DNA of 64,000 nucleotides. Origin: Clostridiales bacterium. GTDB lineage: Bacteria; Bacillota; Clostridia; TANB77; CAG-508. Numbering within the stretch: the stretch's first letter is position 1; every line of letters begins with the position of its first letter. Positions 19,398 through 28,416 of the stretch are shown piece by piece. The notes below the pieces were generated by a model. That model searched no databases. It was not told where the DNA came from and was given only the letters and a program-made list of their open reading frames with translations. The translations under genes and the position numbers were made by a program. Location of the stretch: assembly GCA_003525075.1 (NCBI GenBank), contig DQFO01000014.1, positions 64,032 through 128,031 on the forward strand, given 5' to 3'.

Positions 19398-19425
19398 TAA
19401 AAAAGTCAATAATAATATTGACTTT
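19398..19425 (-). terminator. Intrinsic terminator after cwlD
   Basis: 10-bp perfect stem aaagtcaata (19402-19411) / tattgacttt (19416-19425) abutting the cwlD stop. A U-run follows on the minus strand. Confidence 0.6.
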
Positions 19426-20132
19426 AATCGTAAAAATAATCAATTATTCCATTATACATTCCCCATGCTAATCTGTTTTGATAATCATCTTCTAAAAGCT
19501 TTTTTTCTTCAGTTGGATTTGATAAAAATCCACATTCTACAATTGTAATTGGAATCTCTACATGTTTTATTATATATATGTTCTCTATTGTTTTCGCCAC
19601 TCTATTATTTTCTTTTTGAATCGCTTCATTTAAATTATTTTGTATTGATATTGCAAGTTTTTTTCCTTCTTCACTCCCTTGCTTATAAAATGTTTGCCAA
19701 CCGTCATATTGTTGTTGTGGGATTTTGTTCAAATGTATTGATACAAACAAATCAGCAGAACTTTCATTTCCAATTTTTACTCTATTATGTATGTCTGATA
19801 TTTTTTTCTGTTTTAATGTTTTGGCCTCTATATCATATATAGCATTTTCATCTGAGCGTGTTAATATTACTATTGTTCCACTTTGTTCTAATAAATTTTG
19901 TAATTTTAATGCAATTTTCAAATTTGTTGCAGCTTCTGTTGTTCCTGTACTACTTTGTGCCCCTTCATCTGGTTTTCCATGTCCGTGCATCTATTACTAT
20001 AGTTTTTCCAGAGACTGGTAATGATACTGTTGGTACTATTTCTTTCTTATCTTTTATAAGTGTAAATACTAATATTGACAAAAATACACTGAATACAATA
20101 AATGTTATTCTTTTTTTTCTTAATAAAATCAT
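19424..20132 (-). pseudogene. cwlD: Germination-specific N-acetylmuramoyl-L-alanine amidase CwlD, interrupted by a +1 frameshift
   Basis: The ORF track covers only 19424..19990 (MHGHGKPDEGA...). My own translation from ATG 20132 gives MILLRKKRITFIVFSVFLSILVFTLIKDKKEIVPTVSLPVSGKTIVIDARTWKTR*. Removing one base near 19985 restores TIVIDAGHGKPDEGA, the amidase_3 DxGHG motif. Confidence 0.7.
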
Positions 20133-20181: not shown

Positions 20182-20724
20182 TTATGTTTTAGATATTTCT
20201 TTTCTAATCTGTTTTAGTTTTTTTATTTCATTATCAAAGTCTTCTTTATCCCAAAAACAAAATGTATACATTGAATCATTTTTTTCTCTTGCTAATTCCA
20301 TTTCTTCTATTGTTACATATTTTACATCTGAAACTTCCTCTTTTTGTAATGTATACTCATTTATTTTATAATTAACTTTAAAAATAAAATTATATGAAAA
20401 TCTTTTGGTTTTATCATTACTTTTATGAATATCATATATTTTTATTTGATTTTTTGGAATCTCTATACCTAGTTCTTCTTTTACTTCTCTGAATATAGCA
20501 TTTTCAACACTTTCGCCACTATCTACTTGTCCACCAGTTTTGGCCCATTTGTTAGGATTCTTCTTTTTATTACTAGATCTTTTTTGAAGTAGAATCTCAC
20601 CTTTTTCATTCATTATCCAACATGATACAGTTCTTCTCCAAAGTCCTTTTTCATAAGCTATTTCTCTTTCTTCAATTTGACCAGTAAATTCATTATTCTC
20701 ATTTACAATATCAATTAATTCCAT
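20182..20724 (-). CDS. NUDIX hydrolase
   Basis: Nudix box GGQVDSGESVENAIFREVKEELGI. The likely start is MELIDIV at 20724, preceded by GAGGAGAG. The ORF track extends to 20778. Confidence 0.85.
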   Translation of the reverse strand: MELIDIVNENNEFTGQIEEREIAYEKGLWRRTVSCWIMNEKGEILLQKRSSNKKKNPNKWAKTGGQVDSGESVENAIFREVKEELGIEIPKNQIKIYDIHKSNDKTKRFSYNFIFKVNYKINEYTLQKEEVSDVKYVTIEEMELAREKNDSMYTFCFWDKEDFDNEIKKLKQIRKEISKT

Positions 20725-20809
20725 CTTCTCTCCTCTCTCATAATTAATTTTATCATTTATATATTTTTTATGCAACAAGAAAAAATTGCAAATTTCTCAA
20801 TCTGCAATT

Positions 20810-21151
20810 TTATATATAATAAATAATTATTCCTATCAAAATTAATAGATTTCCTATTAATTTCTTTTTAGTTATTTTTTCTTTTAAAATTCTATTACTT
20901 AAAATCATTACGAAAATATATCCTAATGATTCTATAATTGGCTCATTTTTATATGGAACTCCTTTTAATCCTAAAACTACTAAAACTGTTGATAATACCA
21001 TTAATCCATATCCTATTATTACATATGGATTTAAATATTCTTTTATTATTGAATTGTAAGTTTTAGAAGCACTTTTTTTCAAAATTATTTGTGATACAGA
21101 ACTTACTACAACTGCTAATACTAATAAAATTATATATTTACTCATCTTCAC
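20810..21151 (-). CDS. Small 4-TM EamA/SMR-type membrane protein (ArnE-like flippase subunit)
   Basis: 113 aa with 4 hydrophobic segments. It is paired and overlaps with a second similar protein, the arrangement seen for ArnE/ArnF. Confidence 0.6.
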   Translation of the reverse strand: MKMSKYIILLVLAVVVSSVSQIILKKSASKTYNSIIKEYLNPYVIIGYGLMVLSTVLVVLGLKGVPYKNEPIIESLGYIFVMILSNRILKEKITKKKLIGNLLILIGIIIYYI

Positions 21152-21506
21152 TATTTACTATAATTGTACCTGCTATTACAATTATTACTCCTATTACATT
21201 TTTTATTGTTATTGTTTCATTAAATATTAAGATTGCCCATACAATTGACCATAGCAATCCCATTGCTTTATTTGCATATGCAACTGATATATCAAACTTT
21301 TTTATTAATTGTTGCCAAATTATTGCATATACACCTAATATAAGGATTTCTATTCCATAAAATAATATGAACTTAAATGATAAAAATTCTTGTCCTGATG
21401 CAAATTTTGCAAACACTGTTGATAATGTATAAACTGCTATTACTGCTTGTAATATACATATATCTCTAATTTTCGTTTTTTTCTTTACTTCTTTTTCTTT
21501 ATCCAT
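21138..21506 (-). CDS. Small 4-TM EamA/SMR-type membrane protein (ArnF-like flippase subunit)
   Basis: 122 aa with 4 hydrophobic segments. 14-nt overlap with the downstream paralog. Confidence 0.6.
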   Translation of the reverse strand: MDKEKEVKKKTKIRDICILQAVIAVYTLSTVFAKFASGQEFLSFKFILFYGIEILILGVYAIIWQQLIKKFDISVAYANKAMGLLWSIVWAILIFNETITIKNVIGVIIVIAGTIIVNSEDE

Positions 21507-21530
21507 TTTTATTTCCTTTTAAATAATATT

Positions 21531-22646
21531 TTATATTGCTAAAATATAATATCCATATCTTGTTGAACTATCTATAATTTTATGAGAATTTATTTCATCA
21601 ATTGGACTAATATAATAAATATATTCTGGATGTTCTTTCTTTATCTTCTCTAATTCATCTACATCACTTTTGGTGAAAATAAATTTTATTACTGCTTGTT
21701 TTGGATTTGTAACTTTAGTAAAATCTGGTTTATTACCTAATGCTACATCTATTACCATTTTTAAAAAGTCATATCCTGTAGAAATTTGAACTAAGTCTGA
21801 ACCTATACAATCTCCACCCATTCTGGCACCAATTTCTATTATCTTCACTTCTCCTTCAGGTGTAATTTTAAATTCTGCATGTGATGCACTATTTTTTATT
21901 TTTAAACTATTTAATCCTGCAATCACTTCTTTTTTTACCTTTTCTTGCATTTCATTACTTAATCCTGCAGGCTCTGTATGTCCTGTTTCTATAAAATGTG
22001 GTGCACCAGTTGTCTGCTTTCTAGTTATTGTTAATATTGTATGTTCTCCATTATATGTAATACCTTCTGCACTGAATTCATCACCATCAATATATTCTTC
22101 TACAATAGCTTTTTTTTCAAATGATACTTCTATTGCATCTCTAATTGCTGTTTTTAACTTTTCTTCATCATTCAAATCTTCTATTTTAGTAATTGATCTA
22201 CTTCCAGATCTATCTGTCGGTTTTACAATTATTGGGGTCTTCATTTCCTTTATTTTAGATAAATCATTAACATCTGATATTTCAAAAAATTTAGGTACTG
22301 ATACACCATATTTTTGAAATGCCTTTCTCATTTCATATTTATTCGTTGAAATTTTAGTACATTCTAAACTATTTCCAGCAAGTCCTAATTTTTCAGCTAA
22401 ATAATTTACTGTTAATGTTGCCAAATCTGATGCAACAGATGTAATTGCATCAGGCTTAATTTCTTTGCATTTTTCTAATATCTTTTCTTTTTCTATTATA
22501 CTAATTGGATAAAAATAATCTGCAAATTCTGCCCCAACAGCTCCATCTGCCCAAGCGAAAACATGTGTCTCATATCCTAATTGTTTCGCTTTTTTTATTA
22601 ATGGCATTTGAAAATTATTTGCCCCTATTATAACAATTTTTTTCAT
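21531..22646 (-). CDS. ATP-grasp domain ligase
   Basis: 371 aa. KIVIIGANNFQMPLIKKAKQLGYETHVF pre-ATP-grasp region, IVKPTDRSGSR, and the glycine-rich/Mg-binding region EIGARMGGD. Confidence 0.75.
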   Translation of the reverse strand: MKKIVIIGANNFQMPLIKKAKQLGYETHVFAWADGAVGAEFADYFYPISIIEKEKILEKCKEIKPDAITSVASDLATLTVNYLAEKLGLAGNSLECTKISTNKYEMRKAFQKYGVSVPKFFEISDVNDLSKIKEMKTPIIVKPTDRSGSRSITKIEDLNDEEKLKTAIRDAIEVSFEKKAIVEEYIDGDEFSAEGITYNGEHTILTITRKQTTGAPHFIETGHTEPAGLSNEMQEKVKKEVIAGLNSLKIKNSASHAEFKITPEGEVKIIEIGARMGGDCIGSDLVQISTGYDFLKMVIDVALGNKPDFTKVTNPKQAVIKFIFTKSDVDELEKIKKEHPEYIYYISPIDEINSHKIIDSSTRYGYYILAI

Positions 22647-22668
22647 TAAAAAATCTCACCTTCTGTAA

Positions 22669-23799
22669 TTATTTTTGATAAAATTCTTTTATTCTTTTTA
22701 TTACTTCATCTTGATCTTGCTTTGTTAGTCCATAATACATTGGAAGTCTAATTAATTTTTCGCTTTCTATTGTAGTAAATTCATCTTTTCCATTAAATCT
22801 TCCAAATCTCTTTCCTGCTGGAGAATCATGTAATGGTATATAATGGAATACTGCTTGTATACCATTGTCTTTTAAATATTTTATTAAGCTTGTTCTTTCA
22901 TCTAAACTTCTTGCTTTTATATAAAACATATGTGCATTATGTGTACTATATTCTGGAACTGTTTGTATTTTTATTAATCCTTTTTTTTCTAATTCTTCTA
23001 AATTCTTTTTATAATAATTCCATGAACTTAATCTTGCATTATTAATTTCTTCTGCTTTATCTAATTGTGGATATAAATAAGCACAATTTAGCTCACTTGG
23101 TAAATATGATGAACCATAATCTACCCATGTATATTTGTCAATTTCACCTCTAAAGAATTTATTTCTGTTTGTTCCTTTTTCTCTTATTATTTCTGCTCTT
23201 TCAATTAAATCAGGATCATTTATTACTACTGCTCCACCTTCGCCCATACTATAATTTTTTGTTTCATGGAAACTATAACAACCAATGTCTCCAATTGTTC
23301 CAAGATATTTGTCTTTATATTTAGCCATAAATCCTTGTGCTGCATCTTCTACAACTTTTAAATTATGTTCTTTAGCAATTTTCATTACTTTATCCATATC
23401 TGGTGAAATTCCTGCATAATGAACAACAGCAATTGCTTTTGTTTTATCTGTTATTGCTTCTTTTATTTTTTCTTCATCTATATTCATTGTATCAGGATTT
23501 ACATCTACAAAAACAACCTTTGCCCCTACCATTACAAATGCATCAGCAGTTGATACAAATGTATATGATGGCATTATTACTTCATCACCTGGTTTTAAAT
23601 CTAATAATATTGCTGCCATCTCTAATGCTGATGTACAAGATGTTGTCATTAATACTTTATGAGCATTAAATTTATTTTCCATCCATTCACTACATTTTTT
23701 AGTAAATGCTCCATCACCACAAATTTTTCTACTTTCTGCAGCTTCTTTTATACAATCTATTGATTCTTTTATATAAATTGGTACATTAAACCCTATCAT
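22669..23799 (-). CDS. DegT/DnrJ/EryC1/StrS-family sugar aminotransferase (WecE/ArnB-like)
   Basis: 376 aa. TSCTSALEMA, SYTFVSTADAF and the PLP-lysine region SFHETKNYSMGEGG are typical of nucleotide-sugar 4-aminotransferases. Confidence 0.85.
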   Translation of the reverse strand: MIGFNVPIYIKESIDCIKEAAESRKICGDGAFTKKCSEWMENKFNAHKVLMTTSCTSALEMAAILLDLKPGDEVIMPSYTFVSTADAFVMVGAKVVFVDVNPDTMNIDEEKIKEAITDKTKAIAVVHYAGISPDMDKVMKIAKEHNLKVVEDAAQGFMAKYKDKYLGTIGDIGCYSFHETKNYSMGEGGAVVINDPDLIERAEIIREKGTNRNKFFRGEIDKYTWVDYGSSYLPSELNCAYLYPQLDKAEEINNARLSSWNYYKKNLEELEKKGLIKIQTVPEYSTHNAHMFYIKARSLDERTSLIKYLKDNGIQAVFHYIPLHDSPAGKRFGRFNGKDEFTTIESEKLIRLPMYYGLTKQDQDEVIKRIKEFYQK

Positions 23800-23815
23800 T
23801 TTTACCCTCTTCTTT

Positions 23816-25201
23816 CTATTTATATGTTGGTATTATATATCCAAATAATGCTCTTTGTGCTATTAAGATTATAATTACCATTATTACTATAATTATTATA
23901 TTTCTAATTTTTTCTGACTTTATAAATTTTTCTAAAATAGTTTTTATTCCACTAACTATAAAATATGTAAATGGTATTATTATCCCCATTATATATCTTC
24001 CTTGTGCTTGATAATCACTTGTATATGAATAATATATGCTTAAAATAATAGGAATTATAATTGATGGAATAAATATATAATTTAATAAATATCTATTTTT
24101 TTCTTTTTTATTATAAATAAATAATTCTTTAAAATTGATTAGACATCCTATAATTCCAAGTCCCCATAATATTAAGTAAAATTGATAAATTCTACTAGAC
24201 ATTATTATATTTTGATACCCAAAAATTCCAACAAAGCTTTTTAATGTTGTCTTTATCCAATCATCCTTTATCAACATATCCATTACTGATTCATTATTTT
24301 TTTGTGGTGTTTCTCTTTTTGATGGTTTATATTTATCAATTGCATATTTGTCTCCACATTCCACCTGTGTTTTCATTCCTAATATATCACCATCATAAAT
24401 AATTGCATTTCTTATAAACCACCACCCAGCAACTGCAAATGCCATTAATGCTACTATTAATACTTTTTGAAGTATTTCTTTAATTTTCATCTTATTAGAA
24501 ATTACTGATACTAAACAAAGTATAACACTACATAAGATATATCCATAAGCATTATAATATGTAAGAGAACAAAATCCTATTGAAAGTCCTAATAATATAC
24601 AATGTTTTGTCTTCCAATTACTTTCTAATCCTAAAATCCATAAATATATTATCATTGTTGTTGCCAATACTGCTGTAGAATCATTATTTATATATGATGC
24701 TAAAAATGCCGTTATTGGTTGAAATACTATAATTACTATAAATAAATATTTATATATTCCTTTCAATAATTTTTGAGCTATTTTAACTACAAAATATACA
24801 GATACTGTCATACTTATTGTACTTACAAGTCTTGCAGCAACAACTAATGCAAATTTATCATTTGTGAAAAATGATGCTATTTTAACAAAAACACCACCTA
24901 TCATATATGTAAGAATTGGTTGAAATGCATATGATATTCCCCAATCAGGTTCTCTTATTTCTTCATTACCTCCTTGTGGAATACTGCCATGTTTAGCTAT
25001 ATATTTACATATCTTCCACTTCATTCCTTCATCAGGACACTTATTAAATGGTTGAGAAACTGTCCATATAAGAAAATATGAAAATACAAAAATTAAAAAA
25101 ATTCCTAATATTAATTTTTTATGTTTTTTACATTTTTCGACAAAATTTGTAATATTTATTTTTTTATATTTTTTTATTTCATTTGTCATCTTTTTTCTCA
25201 T
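23816..25201 (-). CDS. GT-C fold membrane glycosyltransferase (ArnT/PMT-like)
   Basis: 461 aa with more than 10 TM segments and an N-terminal loop containing PDEGMKW. It is adjacent to a polyprenyl-phosphate GT2 with a 23-nt overlap. Confidence 0.7.
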   Translation of the reverse strand: MRKKMTNEIKKYKKINITNFVEKCKKHKKLILGIFLIFVFSYFLIWTVSQPFNKCPDEGMKWKICKYIAKHGSIPQGGNEEIREPDWGISYAFQPILTYMIGGVFVKIASFFTNDKFALVVAARLVSTISMTVSVYFVVKIAQKLLKGIYKYLFIVIIVFQPITAFLASYINNDSTAVLATTMIIYLWILGLESNWKTKHCILLGLSIGFCSLTYYNAYGYILCSVILCLVSVISNKMKIKEILQKVLIVALMAFAVAGWWFIRNAIIYDGDILGMKTQVECGDKYAIDKYKPSKRETPQKNNESVMDMLIKDDWIKTTLKSFVGIFGYQNIIMSSRIYQFYLILWGLGIIGCLINFKELFIYNKKEKNRYLLNYIFIPSIIIPIILSIYYSYTSDYQAQGRYIMGIIIPFTYFIVSGIKTILEKFIKSEKIRNIIIIVIMVIIILIAQRALFGYIIPTYK

Positions 25202-26126
25202 CCCCTTTTTCCACTTTTTCTATGATATATGGTGGTCTTTTTCTTGCAGCATCATATGTTCTCCATAAGTATTCTCCTATAATTCCTATTGATAACATAA
25301 TTACTCCAAATCCCATAAGCATAATCATTACAAGCGAAGTATAACCTTCAACATCTATTTTACCAGTTATCTTTTTATATACTATTGCAATTAATAAAAC
25401 TAAAGATAATAATGATGTTAAAAATCCAGTTGTTGTTATTAATTTTACTGGGAAATATGAAAAACTTAGTAATGAATCATATACTAGTTTTATTTTTTTA
25501 GATAATGTCCATCTTGACTTTCCTATTTCTCTTTTCTTTCTTATATATGGAACTGTTGTTGTTTCAAAACCAGCCCATAAAATTTGACTCATTAATGATG
25601 TATTTTTTTCTTGCATATTAACTAATAAATTTATAACTTGTCTATCTATTAAAAATGAATCAAATCCTCCCTTAGGCATATTATGAAGTGCTAATTTTCT
25701 CATTAAAAATGCATATAAATTTGAAAACATTTTTTGAGTTAATGGTTCTTCCCTATCAGCCCTTGTTGCTAATACCACTTTATAACCTTCATCATATTTT
25801 TGTATCATATCTAATATCATTTCAGATGGTTCTTGTAAATCAGCAGCTTTTCTTACTGCACAATCCCCCGTACATTGTGATAGACCTGCTAATATTGCCG
25901 AATGTTCTCCAAAATTTCTTGATAGTCTTATTGTCTTTATATTAGAATCTATTTTTGCTAATTCTTTCATTACACTATATGAATCATCTTTTGACCCATC
26001 ATCTACAAATATTAGCTCATATCCTATATCAAGTTTTGATAATACCTTTTCTTTTAAATCAGCATATAATGGTAGTAAATTATCATGATTATAATATACT
26101 GGTACTACTATTGATATTTTCTTCAT
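25179..26126 (-). CDS. Polyprenyl-phosphate glycosyltransferase, GT2 with two C-terminal TM helices (ArnC/GtrB-like)
   Basis: ISIVVPVYYNHDNL, FVDDGSKDDS, RLSRNFGEHSA and ADLQEP, followed by 2 TM helices. This is the classic GtrB/ArnC/DPM1 layout. Confidence 0.85.
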   Translation of the reverse strand: MKKISIVVPVYYNHDNLLPLYADLKEKVLSKLDIGYELIFVDDGSKDDSYSVMKELAKIDSNIKTIRLSRNFGEHSAILAGLSQCTGDCAVRKAADLQEPSEMILDMIQKYDEGYKVVLATRADREEPLTQKMFSNLYAFLMRKLALHNMPKGGFDSFLIDRQVINLLVNMQEKNTSLMSQILWAGFETTTVPYIRKKREIGKSRWTLSKKIKLVYDSLLSFSYFPVKLITTTGFLTSLLSLVLLIAIVYKKITGKIDVEGYTSLVMIMLMGFGVIMLSIGIIGEYLWRTYDAARKRPPYIIEKVEKGDEKKDDK

Positions 26127-26189
26127 CTAAATTTTCCCTCCAATTATTTCGTTGCTATTTTACCATATAATTATCCTGAAATCAATCTT

Positions 26190-27678: not shown

Positions 27679-27707
27679 TTGACACATTTCGATTTTTGGT
27701 ATATAAT
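27679..27707 (+). promoter_or_regulatory. Sigma-70/SigA-type promoter, perfect consensus, starting 3 nt after the PHP stop codon
   Basis: TTGACA (27679-27684), 17-nt spacer, TATAAT (27702-27707). A 76-nt leader runs to ATG 27784. Confidence 0.65.
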
Positions 27708-27783
27708 TAATATATTAACCCATTGTATGGATTTGCTATTCAAAAATCGGATAGTAAAAAACAATTTATGGAGGTATGGCACT

Positions 27784-28416
27784 ATGACTACTCGTTGGAT
27801 TGCTGTTACTGGCTTGGACGGAAGTGGCAAAACCACTTTGGTCGACAATCTCGTTAAATTTCTCGAATCTAAGGGATTCAAGGTTTACCGGGATCGTTTC
27901 CCCCACGATAAGTATTTGACCAAGACTCTCTTGAATGAGAGCAAGGATGCTTATACTGATCGTCTGCTCTTTGCACTGGATAATCGCATCGCGGGTACTC
28001 ACCTGCGTGGCATCATTGAGACTGGTGAATATGATTTCATAGTTACTCAGCGTTGTTTCCTGGACAGTTTTGTCCATGGTGCAGTTCAGGGCTATTCCTA
28101 TTCTTGGGTGTCTGAACTCAATCATGTCAGAGATCTTCCCAAGTGTGACATTATGGTCCACATGGTCGCAGAAGCCCGCATCGCGTATGCGCGCATTTGC
28201 AATGATCCTGATGCTGATAAGTTCGAATATCCTGAATACATCGGCAAACAAGAGCAAGAAACCCGGCGGGCATATGTTGAAGTTGAAGCGCATAACAATC
28301 CTGCACTCATCCACTTTAACACTTGCCAAAACATCTACATGGACACCACTCAGATGTCCACTGATGAGGTCTTCGAAACGGTAAGCTCTAAGCTCGTTAA
28401 GATGCTCAACCTCTAA
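27784..28416 (+). CDS. Thymidylate-kinase-like P-loop nucleotide kinase (divergent), on a GC-rich foreign island
   Basis: GGAGG (27770-27774) lies 9 nt before ATG 27784. The ORF-track start at 27679 is the TTG of the -35 box. Walker A IAVTGLDGSGKTT is Tmk-type, and LLFALDNR resembles Tmk LLFxADR. The DRY/DRH position reads TQRCF. 29/60 G+C in the first 60 nt. Confidence 0.75.
   Translation: MTTRWIAVTGLDGSGKTTLVDNLVKFLESKGFKVYRDRFPHDKYLTKTLLNESKDAYTDRLLFALDNRIAGTHLRGIIETGEYDFIVTQRCFLDSFVHGAVQGYSYSWVSELNHVRDLPKCDIMVHMVAEARIAYARICNDPDADKFEYPEYIGKQEQETRRAYVEVEAHNNPALIHFNTCQNIYMDTTQMSTDEVFETVSSKLVKMLNL

Follow-up and report, generated by a model that had tools for sequence, protein, structure and literature searches.

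What do the sugar-modification genes on the minus strand at 20182–26126 of this stretch make, and how many of them work together? The stretch, hereafter the window, comprises 64,000 nt of contig DQFO01000014.1 from a Clostridiales bacterium. A sequence-only reading had described its seven co-directional, tightly packed open reading frames (ORFs) as a cluster resembling the Gram-negative Arn pathway, in which an ATP-grasp ligase and a Nudix hydrolase would take the place of ArnA and ArnD. The ORF list of the window gives seven minus-strand ORFs in this interval, and Pfam and NCBIfam scans agree with the families proposed for all of them, namely a GT2 glycosyltransferase, a GT-C-type membrane glycosyltransferase, an aminotransferase, the ATP-grasp ligase, two small SMR/EamA-like proteins with four transmembrane (TM) segments (SMR1 and SMR2) and the Nudix hydrolase. 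Our results retain the first six genes as a module, which we regard, with reasonable but far from complete confidence, as a three-component, Arn-like system of extracytoplasmic glycosylation for an N-acylated 4-amino-4,6-dideoxyhexose.

The grouping of these six genes is carried by their conservation. The ATP-grasp ligase has thousands of unnamed homologues, and a scan with one genome per species found relatives in ~440 species-level genomes, the best 80 of which are gut and rumen Clostridia, with the cultured Lachnospiraceae Laedolimicola ammoniilytica, Anaerosacchariphilus hominis and Hominiventricola filiformis among the carriers. Three homologues (70–78% identical) display the same six-gene arrangement in three unrelated neighbourhoods. 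The neighbourhoods of 86 related loci (cited below by L numbers) were compared by tblastn with the seven window proteins and by clustering of the neighbouring ORFs, and partners were counted in the 55 loci that extend at least 6 kb on both sides of the ATP-grasp gene. A GT2 was present in 52/55 of them, as was a polytopic membrane protein of at least 380 aa (52/55), the aminotransferase and SMR2 were each present in 50/55, and SMR1 in 48/55; several apparent absences of the aminotransferase are frameshifted copies still seen by tblastn. The most constant block is formed by the aminotransferase, the ATP-grasp ligase and the two SMR genes; from lineage to lineage, the GT2 and the large membrane partner vary in both type and position. 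In the 83 loci where ORF clustering recovered the ATP-grasp gene (57–96% identity), no other gene is linked as tightly to the aminotransferase; the ATP-grasp gene stays in place when the GT2 and GT-C partners are swapped, and often only RmlB lies between it and the aminotransferase. Judged from these neighbourhoods, the six-gene arrangement is far beyond chance, its members recurring together in dozens of species-level genomes with unrelated flanks. This supports the claim of the sequence-only reading that the ATP-grasp ligase, which is the most faithfully co-conserved partner of the aminotransferase, belongs to the pathway. Note that no ArnA- or ArnD-type recurrent neighbour was present among the annotated accessory clusters of the 86 loci, several recurrent clusters being unannotated.

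The same comparison separates the Nudix gene from the module. The tight packing reported for seven genes stands for the first six, whereas the Nudix gene lies apart, behind an 85-nt gap that holds an AU-rich hairpin. Its translation almost certainly begins at the ATG at 20724, preceded by its own GGAGAG ribosome-binding site downstream of the hairpin, and independent gene calls also give a protein of 180 aa. Compared with loci L007 and L010, the closest relatives, the hairpin and the gene form a clean extra segment of 621 nt (20188–20808) with an 8-nt direct repeat, AAATTGCA, at its bounds; in both loci cwlD directly follows SMR2 and the flanking DNA is 90–96% identical to that of the window, the cluster genes of L007 being 94–97% identical to those of the window and L010 being more divergent, with only 70% for the GT-C. 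Among the 86 related loci the Nudix protein remains a singleton cluster, and tblastn found no homologue within ±10 kb. Orthologues at 75–80% identity are placed elsewhere in related genomes: one (L093) lies ~450 kb from the module (L001) on the same 1.565-Mb contig, among phosphatase genes, a second (L095) has a Peptidase_M23 gene on one side and cwlD on the other, away from any sugar genes, and a third (L097) lies between an HD-domain gene and prfB. The protein itself (NUDIX Pfam match, 77.5 bits) is a generic MutT/YfcD/IDI-like hydrolase with only weak similarity to GDP-mannose mannosyl hydrolase. A seven-gene version of the system, in which the Nudix enzyme would trim a nucleotide-sugar intermediate in place of ArnA/ArnD, can rely on its adjacency, its shared strand and its stable linkage to the cluster within the species (six independent assemblies, with the exact protein indexed in 6,298 blocks of public assemblies); set against its absence from the closest relatives and from the other neighbourhoods, this version is extremely improbable. 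On these sequence comparisons, the Nudix gene is effectively refuted as a co-conserved member, by an outcome that the sequence-only reading had itself named as speaking against it, and is excluded from the module. Since another species carries it directly upstream of cwlD without sugar genes, its linkage to cwlD may be older than that to the sugar genes. A NUDIX gene seen two genes downstream in L003 gave no tblastn match to that of the window and was treated as a coincidence.

The aminotransferase points to the type of sugar. It belongs to the DegT family (304 bits) and passes both WecE models (NF008687, 621.8 bits for a cutoff of 375; TIGR02379, 608.5 bits for a cutoff of 434.85), whereas the ArnB model NF008658 gives 192.8 bits against a cutoff of 631. 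In addition, it aligns over its full length (residues 1–373) with Escherichia coli WecE (4PIW/4ZAH) at 505 bits and keeps the SFHETKN motif of the lysine that binds pyridoxal phosphate (PLP). By these matches the enzyme is a WecE orthologue, predicted to act on sugars linked to deoxythymidine diphosphate (dTDP), and an ArnB-like substrate is not supported; being a WecE orthologue, it makes a dTDP-6-deoxyhexose of the type of 4-amino-4,6-dideoxygalactose (Fuc4N) the most likely sugar, rather than 4-amino-4-deoxy-L-arabinose (L-Ara4N). RmlB (TIGR01181, 474 bits for a cutoff of 365) occurs in 23 loci, often as the one gene that separates the aminotransferase from the ATP-grasp ligase, and RmlA (TIGR01207, 458 bits for a cutoff of 361) in 7, which ties the module to dTDP-4-keto-6-deoxyglucose and the ligase to the sugar-nucleotide steps. 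WecE-type chemistry is known, but the gene is integral to the module and co-conserved with it, so that its derivation from an unrelated dTDP-sugar pathway encoded elsewhere, which had been named as a way to overturn the sequence-only reading, is not what was found. As a separate observation, L052, L057 and L058 carry after RmlB a second DegT-like protein of 343 aa that matches only the N-terminal half of the Pfam model.

Next to this enzyme, the ATP-grasp ligase (ATP-grasp_4, 91.8 bits) has as its best characterised relatives in sequence searches the ligases BL00235 (98–123 bits), BacD (68–86 bits), RizA, PylC (57.5 bits) and DdaF (46 bits), with PurT at 34 bits. Its AlphaFold2 (AF2) model has a predicted local distance difference test (pLDDT) score of 80.7. 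The top Foldseek match by E-value is 4DIM (1.1e-27, TM score 0.75), a structural-genomics protein of unknown function, followed by BL00235 (TM score 0.82), YwfE/BacD and RizA, and then by PurK, biotin carboxylases and PurT; E-values against 4DIM, BL00235, BacD and RizA range from 1e-27 to 1e-24. The fold and the catalytic set (a Lys, two Mg-binding Glu and an Arg) are intact, as K142, E183, E258, E271 and R275 are invariant in 77 non-identical orthologues and D279/C280 are kept in 76 of these 77. R275 aligns with the catalytic Arg of L-amino-acid ligases, whose role is described together with a mechanism via an acyl phosphate (PMC9486568). The substrate pocket was mapped at this Arg and at the position equivalent to Trp332 of BacD, a donor-pocket residue (PMC6920838), which is occupied in the orthologues by the almost invariant Asp, D279. 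In addition, the N-terminal, nucleophile-binding domain is highly conserved, and we argue from the genomic context that the nucleophile would be the sugar amine.

All characterised close relatives of the ligase activate amino acids, so the acid that it joins is most likely an amino acid as well; an aminoacyl group would give the sugar a free amine and with it a positive charge. A basic donor amino acid, suggested by D279 at the Trp332-equivalent position, is a testable guess and nothing more. Note that one metagenome-assembled genome (MAG) from sheep ileum (L042, 10001–11524) holds an in-frame ATP-grasp::SMR1 fusion of 507 aa, in which residues 1–368 of the ligase are followed by a Lys/Asn-rich linker of ~30 aa and the 4-TM protein; this single, unverified case would be consistent with a ligase working at the flippase, and it may represent a true fusion or a lost stop codon. 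An Orn/Lys/Arg-decarboxylase-like gene found right after the SMR pair in 5 loci was rejected as a clue to the acyl donor, as it adjoins holB and presumably belongs to a conserved yaaO-tmk-holB housekeeping block (tmk not being annotated there).

The remaining genes supply the candidate lipid-linked steps. The GT2 (PF00535, 79.7 bits) finds its best NCBIfam matches, over the full length, in PgfS (210 bits) and ArnC (NF007986, 176 bits for a cutoff of 529), both below the equivalog cutoffs, and in the PDB it matches full-length GtrB (5EKP, 198 bits, residues 3–303) and ArnC (9HWJ/9BHC, 147 bits). Two C-terminal TM segments lie near residues 232 and 267 of an 83% identical orthologue (the L022 cluster representative), so that the protein has the predicted architecture of a polyprenyl-phosphate GT2, i.e., a GT-A domain followed by a C-terminal TM hairpin. 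The GT-C matches DUF2142 (42 bits, cutoff 30.1) and PMT_2 (30.6 bits, cutoff 26.1) and has no NCBIfam match at all; P56-D57-E58 in its first loop is invariant across 14 homologues, and hhalign relates it to the YfhO-type partners of other loci with a probability of 94%. The large membrane partner is of the DUF2142 type in 39 loci and elsewhere of the YfhO type, DUF6020 or an unannotated polytopic protein.

SMR1 and SMR2 both match EamA (31.1 bits for a cutoff of 28.2, and 37.1 bits, respectively), with ArnE as the best NCBIfam match of each (32.6 and 28.4 bits, below the cutoff of 92). They are paralogous (hhalign probability 96.5%), translationally coupled, and show four hydrophobic segments each by inspection of the sequence. 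Proton-coupled SMR drug pumps have as their hallmark a membrane-embedded glutamate in TM1 (Glu14 of EmrE), and in the SMR1 and SMR2 families (66 and 67 members) no TM1 position is acidic in at least 70% of the members; the EbrB, MdtJ and QacC models also remain far below their cutoffs, and hhalign finds the pair unrelated to GtrA (probability <1%). These features suggest that the pair would form a heterodimeric flippase.

Taken in order, the proposed pathway would start from dTDP-4-keto-6-deoxy-D-glucose, made by RmlA and RmlB, which are encoded within the module in other lineages and would be encoded outside the window here. The WecE-type enzyme would transaminate this intermediate to dTDP-Fuc4N, and the cytoplasmic ATP-grasp ligase would activate a free carboxylic acid as an acyl phosphate and amidate the 4-amino group of the sugar. 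In the Arn pathway, transamination by ArnB is unfavourable, and N-formylation by ArnA pulls the reaction forward and creates the substrate of ArnC; the ligase step would fill the same thermodynamic and recognition role, paid for with ATP. The GtrB/ArnC-type GT2 would then load the sugar onto undecaprenyl phosphate (Und-P), the 4-TM pair would flip the lipid-linked sugar, and the GT-C would transfer it to an extracytoplasmic acceptor, which may be a teichoic-acid-like polymer, a wall polysaccharide or a protein. The module conserves no deacylase, and the sugar would therefore retain its acyl group. Overall, the logic of the sequence-only reading (a lipid-linked 4-amino sugar, flipped by a 4-TM pair and transferred by a GT-C) is supported by these results, with two corrections, to the type of sugar and to the place of the Nudix gene. 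What the results establish are the families, the co-conservation, the WecE orthology, the association with RmlB and RmlA and the intact catalytic residues. A wall polymer as acceptor and the addition of an amino acid by the ligase are inferences, as in that reading; the identity of this acid, undecaprenyl phosphate as the carrier, the flippase role of the pair and acylation ahead of lipid transfer are likewise proposed.

Within this scheme the alternatives mainly concern what the ligase attaches and where the sugar ends up. In the more specific form of the scheme, the ligase would aminoacylate the 4-amino group of dTDP-Fuc4N or, at the membrane beside the flippase, of Und-P-Fuc4N, possibly with a basic amino acid, and yield a cationic sugar on teichoic-acid-like polymers; we put this forward tentatively, as a possibility. 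The same pathway could instead run with a PurT-like ligase for formate or another small acid, which would replace the ArnA formyltransferase, make N-formylated dTDP-Fuc4N from ATP and formate, and leave at the surface a neutral N-formyl or N-acyl Fuc4N in place of a cationic aminoacyl sugar. Here, PurT and PurK stand among the structural neighbours (TM scores ~0.71–0.76) with weak matches to the PurT and PurK models, the module conserves no deacylase, ArnC-type enzymes use an N-formylated donor, and formate is plentiful in anaerobic gut bacteria. However, the sequence of the ligase is clearly closer to amino-acid-activating ligases than to PurT, and the known N-formyl 4-amino sugars are made by transferases that use N10-formyl-tetrahydrofolate, so that a formate ligase appears quite unlikely. 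In another alternative, the enzyme would be an ordinary L-amino-acid (dipeptide) ligase, or a modifier of another envelope precursor, and would have no more than its regulation in common with a simpler WecE/GT2/flippase/GT-C system for unmodified Fuc4N. In its favour, the characterised relatives of the enzyme all act on free amino acids, and the literature yielded no precedent for a nucleotide-sugar substrate. The linkage of the ligase to the aminotransferase, the tightest in the 83 loci and kept at the same position despite the exchange of GT2 and GT-C, with often only RmlB in between, argues against such independence, as do the conserved nucleophile-binding domain and the one fusion to a flippase subunit, and we consider it very improbable.

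The acceptor alone is at stake in the proposal that surface or secreted proteins (S-layer, adhesins, pili) are O-glycosylated by the module, in the manner of the Pgf system of Streptococcus mutans and of PMT-type GT-C enzymes. The match of the GT-C to PMT_2, a protein mannosyltransferase family, the rank of PgfS as best NCBIfam match of the GT2, and the resemblance of YfhO-type partners in other loci to PgfM1 and PgfM2 all fit this proposal, but the Pgf scores all fall far short of the equivalog cutoffs, no conserved candidate target protein adjoins the module, and DUF2142 proteins are reported from the rhamnose-polysaccharide loci of streptococci and lactococci (PMC9746298). Moreover, in several Lachnospiraceae the module adjoins genes for an LtaS-like sulfatase-domain membrane protein, a GDPD phosphodiesterase, GtrA and further GT2s, which are hints, not proof, of a teichoic-acid-type acceptor. 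Protein glycosylation therefore seems unlikely to us. The swapping of the GT-C between lineages (DUF2142 type, YfhO type and others) is as expected if one donor module serves different acceptors. Several observations weigh against the N-acylated amino-sugar scheme as a whole. Neither rmlA nor rmlB was found in the 64-kb window or within ±10 kb in the closest relatives, no GtrB-type enzyme with a dTDP-sugar donor is known to us, and the literature holds no biochemical precedent that we could find for an ATP-grasp enzyme acting on an amino sugar linked to a nucleoside diphosphate or a lipid. The alignment profile of the GT-C gave no match to PDB sequences, including ArnT structures, even at E=10, and its AF2 model, built from a 14-sequence alignment, is unusable (pLDDT 49), so its fold assignment rests on sequence profiles only; the large membrane partners c9, c28, c29 and c42/DUF6020 showed no detectable similarity in hhalign to the DUF2142-type and YfhO-type profiles and were not callable as GT-C. 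Finally, the SMR pair is missing from L011 and L012 and the aminotransferase from L041 and L044, and the L042 fusion, known from a single MAG, could be an assembly error.

Comparison with known systems shows how far each resemblance extends. With the Arn system (PmrHFIJKLM/ArnBCADTEF), which modifies Gram-negative lipid A with L-Ara4N, the module shares its proposed logic: a sugar-nucleotide 4-aminotransferase, a predicted N-acylation of the amine, an ArnC-type GT2, a 4-TM pair as candidate flippase and a putative GT-C outside the membrane. In contrast, its donor would be a dTDP-6-deoxyhexose instead of L-Ara4N linked to uridine diphosphate (UDP), its GT-C is of the DUF2142/PMT_2 type with no ArnT match, and its host belongs to a spore-forming lineage of Clostridia, presumably without lipid A. 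The ArnA domains (decarboxylase and formyltransferase) and ArnD are absent from the seven ORFs, which have the ATP-grasp ligase instead, and every Arn equivalog model stays below its cutoff for the module proteins; for these two reasons the module should not be filed as Arn.

The three-component systems are closer in architecture. Here the comparators are GtrA/GtrB/GtrC, CsbB/GtcA/YfhO, GtlA/GtlB, GacI/GacL, the lactococcal Csd system and PgfS/PgfM of S. mutans, whose general scheme has been described (PMC7389260, PMC11127046). With its GtrB-type GT2 carrying two C-terminal TM helices, its small flippase candidate and its exchangeable putative GT-C, including YfhO types, the module would count among them by predicted architecture. 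However, the known systems use ready-made UDP-glucose, UDP-N-acetylglucosamine, UDP-galactose or pentoses derived from phosphoribosyl pyrophosphate, and a single flippase of the GtrA/GtcA type, whereas the module has a heterodimeric SMR-like pair in that place and carries its own donor-tailoring enzymes (WecE, ATP-grasp and sometimes RmlB plus RmlA). The WecE orthologue, joined by RmlB and RmlA in other lineages, also recalls the dTDP-Fuc4NAc branch (RmlA/RmlB/WecE/WecD) of enterobacterial common antigen, from which the module differs by the absence of the WecD acetyltransferase, WecF/WecG and Wzx/Wzy, the amine being handled by the ATP-grasp ligase, and by a route of the sugar via a polyprenyl monophosphate and a GT-C in place of a repeat unit linked to undecaprenyl diphosphate. 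As for the ligase, it shares the fold (TM scores up to 0.82) and the catalytic Lys, Glu, Glu and Arg with the L-amino-acid ligases (BL00235, YwfE/BacD, RizA and LdmS) and with PylC and DdaF, but at an identity of only ~21–24%, with D279 at the Trp332 position of BacD, in a context of sugar-nucleotide and lipid-carrier genes and not of antibiotic or dipeptide pathways, and with a sugar 4-amino group and not an amino acid as its proposed amine substrate. The SMR pair differs from EmrE-type drug exporters by the lack of a conserved acidic residue in TM1. No description of the six-gene combination was found in the literature; the search excluded most subscription journals, so that this absence is not proof. 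What is new is a built-in donor-tailoring block (WecE plus ATP-grasp, with RmlB/RmlA in some lineages) combined with an ArnE/F-like paired flippase candidate in Clostridia.

The features of the locus are collected in Table 1.

Table 1. Genes and candidate control signals of the locus, in order of transcription (window positions)
Feature	Position	Strand	Basis
Candidate sigma-70-type promoter, TTGATT-17-TAAAAT with upstream TG	26157..26185	-	consensus scan only
GT2 polyprenyl-phosphate glycosyltransferase, GtrB/ArnC/PgfS type, 315 aa	25179..26126	-	PF00535
GT-C-type polytopic membrane glycosyltransferase, DUF2142/PMT_2, 461 aa, ~11 TM helices	23816..25201	-	Pfam
WecE-type PLP aminotransferase, 376 aa	22669..23799	-	NF008687, TIGR02379
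Cytoplasmic ATP-grasp carboxylate-amine ligase, L-amino-acid-ligase-like, 371 aa	21531..22646	-	ATP-grasp_4
SMR1, SMR/EamA-like 4-TM protein, candidate flippase subunit, 122 aa	21138..21506	-	EamA
SMR2, SMR/EamA-like 4-TM protein, candidate flippase subunit, 111 aa	20810..21145	-	EamA
13-bp AU-rich hairpin with U-run, possible weak intrinsic terminator	20782..20811	-	RNA fold
Nudix hydrolase gene, 180 aa, neighbour outside the module	20182..20724	-	NUDIX Pfam

A single operon of the six genes at 20810–26126 is the best explanation of this layout. Read from the sequence, the GT2 and GT-C genes overlap by 23 nt, the gaps after the GT-C gene are 16, 22 and 24 nt in turn, and SMR1 and SMR2 overlap by 8 nt (ATGAGTAA). 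The start of SMR2 is most likely the ATG at 21145, rather than the GTG at 21151; it is called as 111 aa in six independent assemblies. Upstream, the candidate promoter sits within the 63-nt gap between mscL and the GT2 gene, but such matches are no commoner here than in shuffled sequence, which makes it weak evidence. The window as a whole has ~25% G+C and a strong strand bias. Directly after the SMR2 stop, at the edge of the Nudix indel, the hairpin folds with a free energy (dG) of -12.4 kcal/mol (z -2.19); a consensus terminator scan of 19.3–27.0 kb returned no match, and this AU-rich hairpin was not called because the scan requires at least 3 G-C pairs. An Rfam scan of 19.0–27.5 kb found no RNA family at E<=0.1. 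The cluster is flanked by mscL upstream and by cwlD, minD, minE and rodA downstream. On the plus strand, opposite to the operon and two genes upstream of it, 27679–28416 encodes a P-loop protein resembling thymidylate kinase (PF02223, 35 bits); its gene adjoins a PHP-domain gene, lies in slightly more G+C-rich DNA and is conserved only in the closest relatives (L007, L010).

The downstream neighbour cwlD (19424–20131, minus strand) is itself split into ORFs of 55 and 188 aa, which overlap at GAT-GCA-CGG-A near 19985, where a +1 shift (one base skipped) restores the amidase motif D-A-G-H-G-K-P-D-E-G-A. Split copies with a first ORF of 55–60 aa are also present in L010, L087–L092 and L095/L096, and the shift site is identical in six assemblies of the window species, in Clostridium sp. 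26_21 and also in a different species with diverged flanks; the cwlD of L007 is in frame (GAT GCT GGA CAT). The rare CGG after GCA resembles known +1 ‘hungry-codon’ frameshift sites, and the split cwlD is a candidate for a conserved, programmed +1 frameshift, in preference to a sequencing error or a pseudogene.

Several variants of the module were also recorded. In L011 and L012, whose ATP-grasp proteins are 89–92% identical to that of the window, mscL, GT2, GT-C, aminotransferase and ATP-grasp are kept, and two unannotated ORFs (227 and 82 aa) take the place of the missing SMR pair; they may represent an alternative flippase or a decaying operon. Lachnospiraceae versions (L043, L045, L048, L066, L067, L074, L076 and L084) are embedded in a larger glycopolymer locus with two to three tandem unannotated polytopic proteins of ~600 aa, DUF6020, extra GT2s, LtaS-like, GDPD+Big_2 and GtrA genes, and some of these loci hold an unannotated 9-TM protein of 398 aa between the aminotransferase and the ATP-grasp gene. 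The MAGs CAKPGU01 (L028 and L032) and CAKPGC01 (L020 and L085) each carry two copies of the aminotransferase/ATP-grasp/SMR genes on different contigs; those of CAKPGC01 differ in their GT2 and GT-C partners and one has RmlB, which suggests that one organism may decorate two acceptors. Contigs labelled Alistipes onderdonkii, Prevotella sp. CAG:279 and Candidatus Saccharibacteria (L043, L049 and L077) contain a Lachnospiraceae-like module at ~61–63% identity, for which mis-binning is more likely than a cross-phylum distribution.

If the proposed pathway is right, it would reveal a new surface glycan decoration in dominant and poorly studied gut commensals, the window species itself being very common, and it would add ATP-grasp N-acylation and dTDP-6-deoxy-amino-sugar donors to the repertoire of three-component glycosylation, as a second, ATP-driven answer to the problem that the polymyxin-resistance pathway solves by ArnA formylation. 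Should the acyl group prove to be an amino acid, the ligase would be the first ATP-grasp enzyme known to act on a nucleotide- or lipid-linked sugar and the GT2 the first dTDP-sugar-dependent synthase of the GtrB type, and the product would be a charge-modifying envelope decoration functionally analogous to D-alanylation, lysyl-phosphatidylglycerol and the Ara4N of lipid A. With its exchangeable GT-C partners, the module would also lend itself naturally to the study of how a single lipid-linked donor reaches different acceptors. For the bacteria that carry it, the probable consequences of such a decoration would be changes in surface charge, in phage adsorption, in recognition by the immune system and in resistance to antimicrobial peptides of the host.

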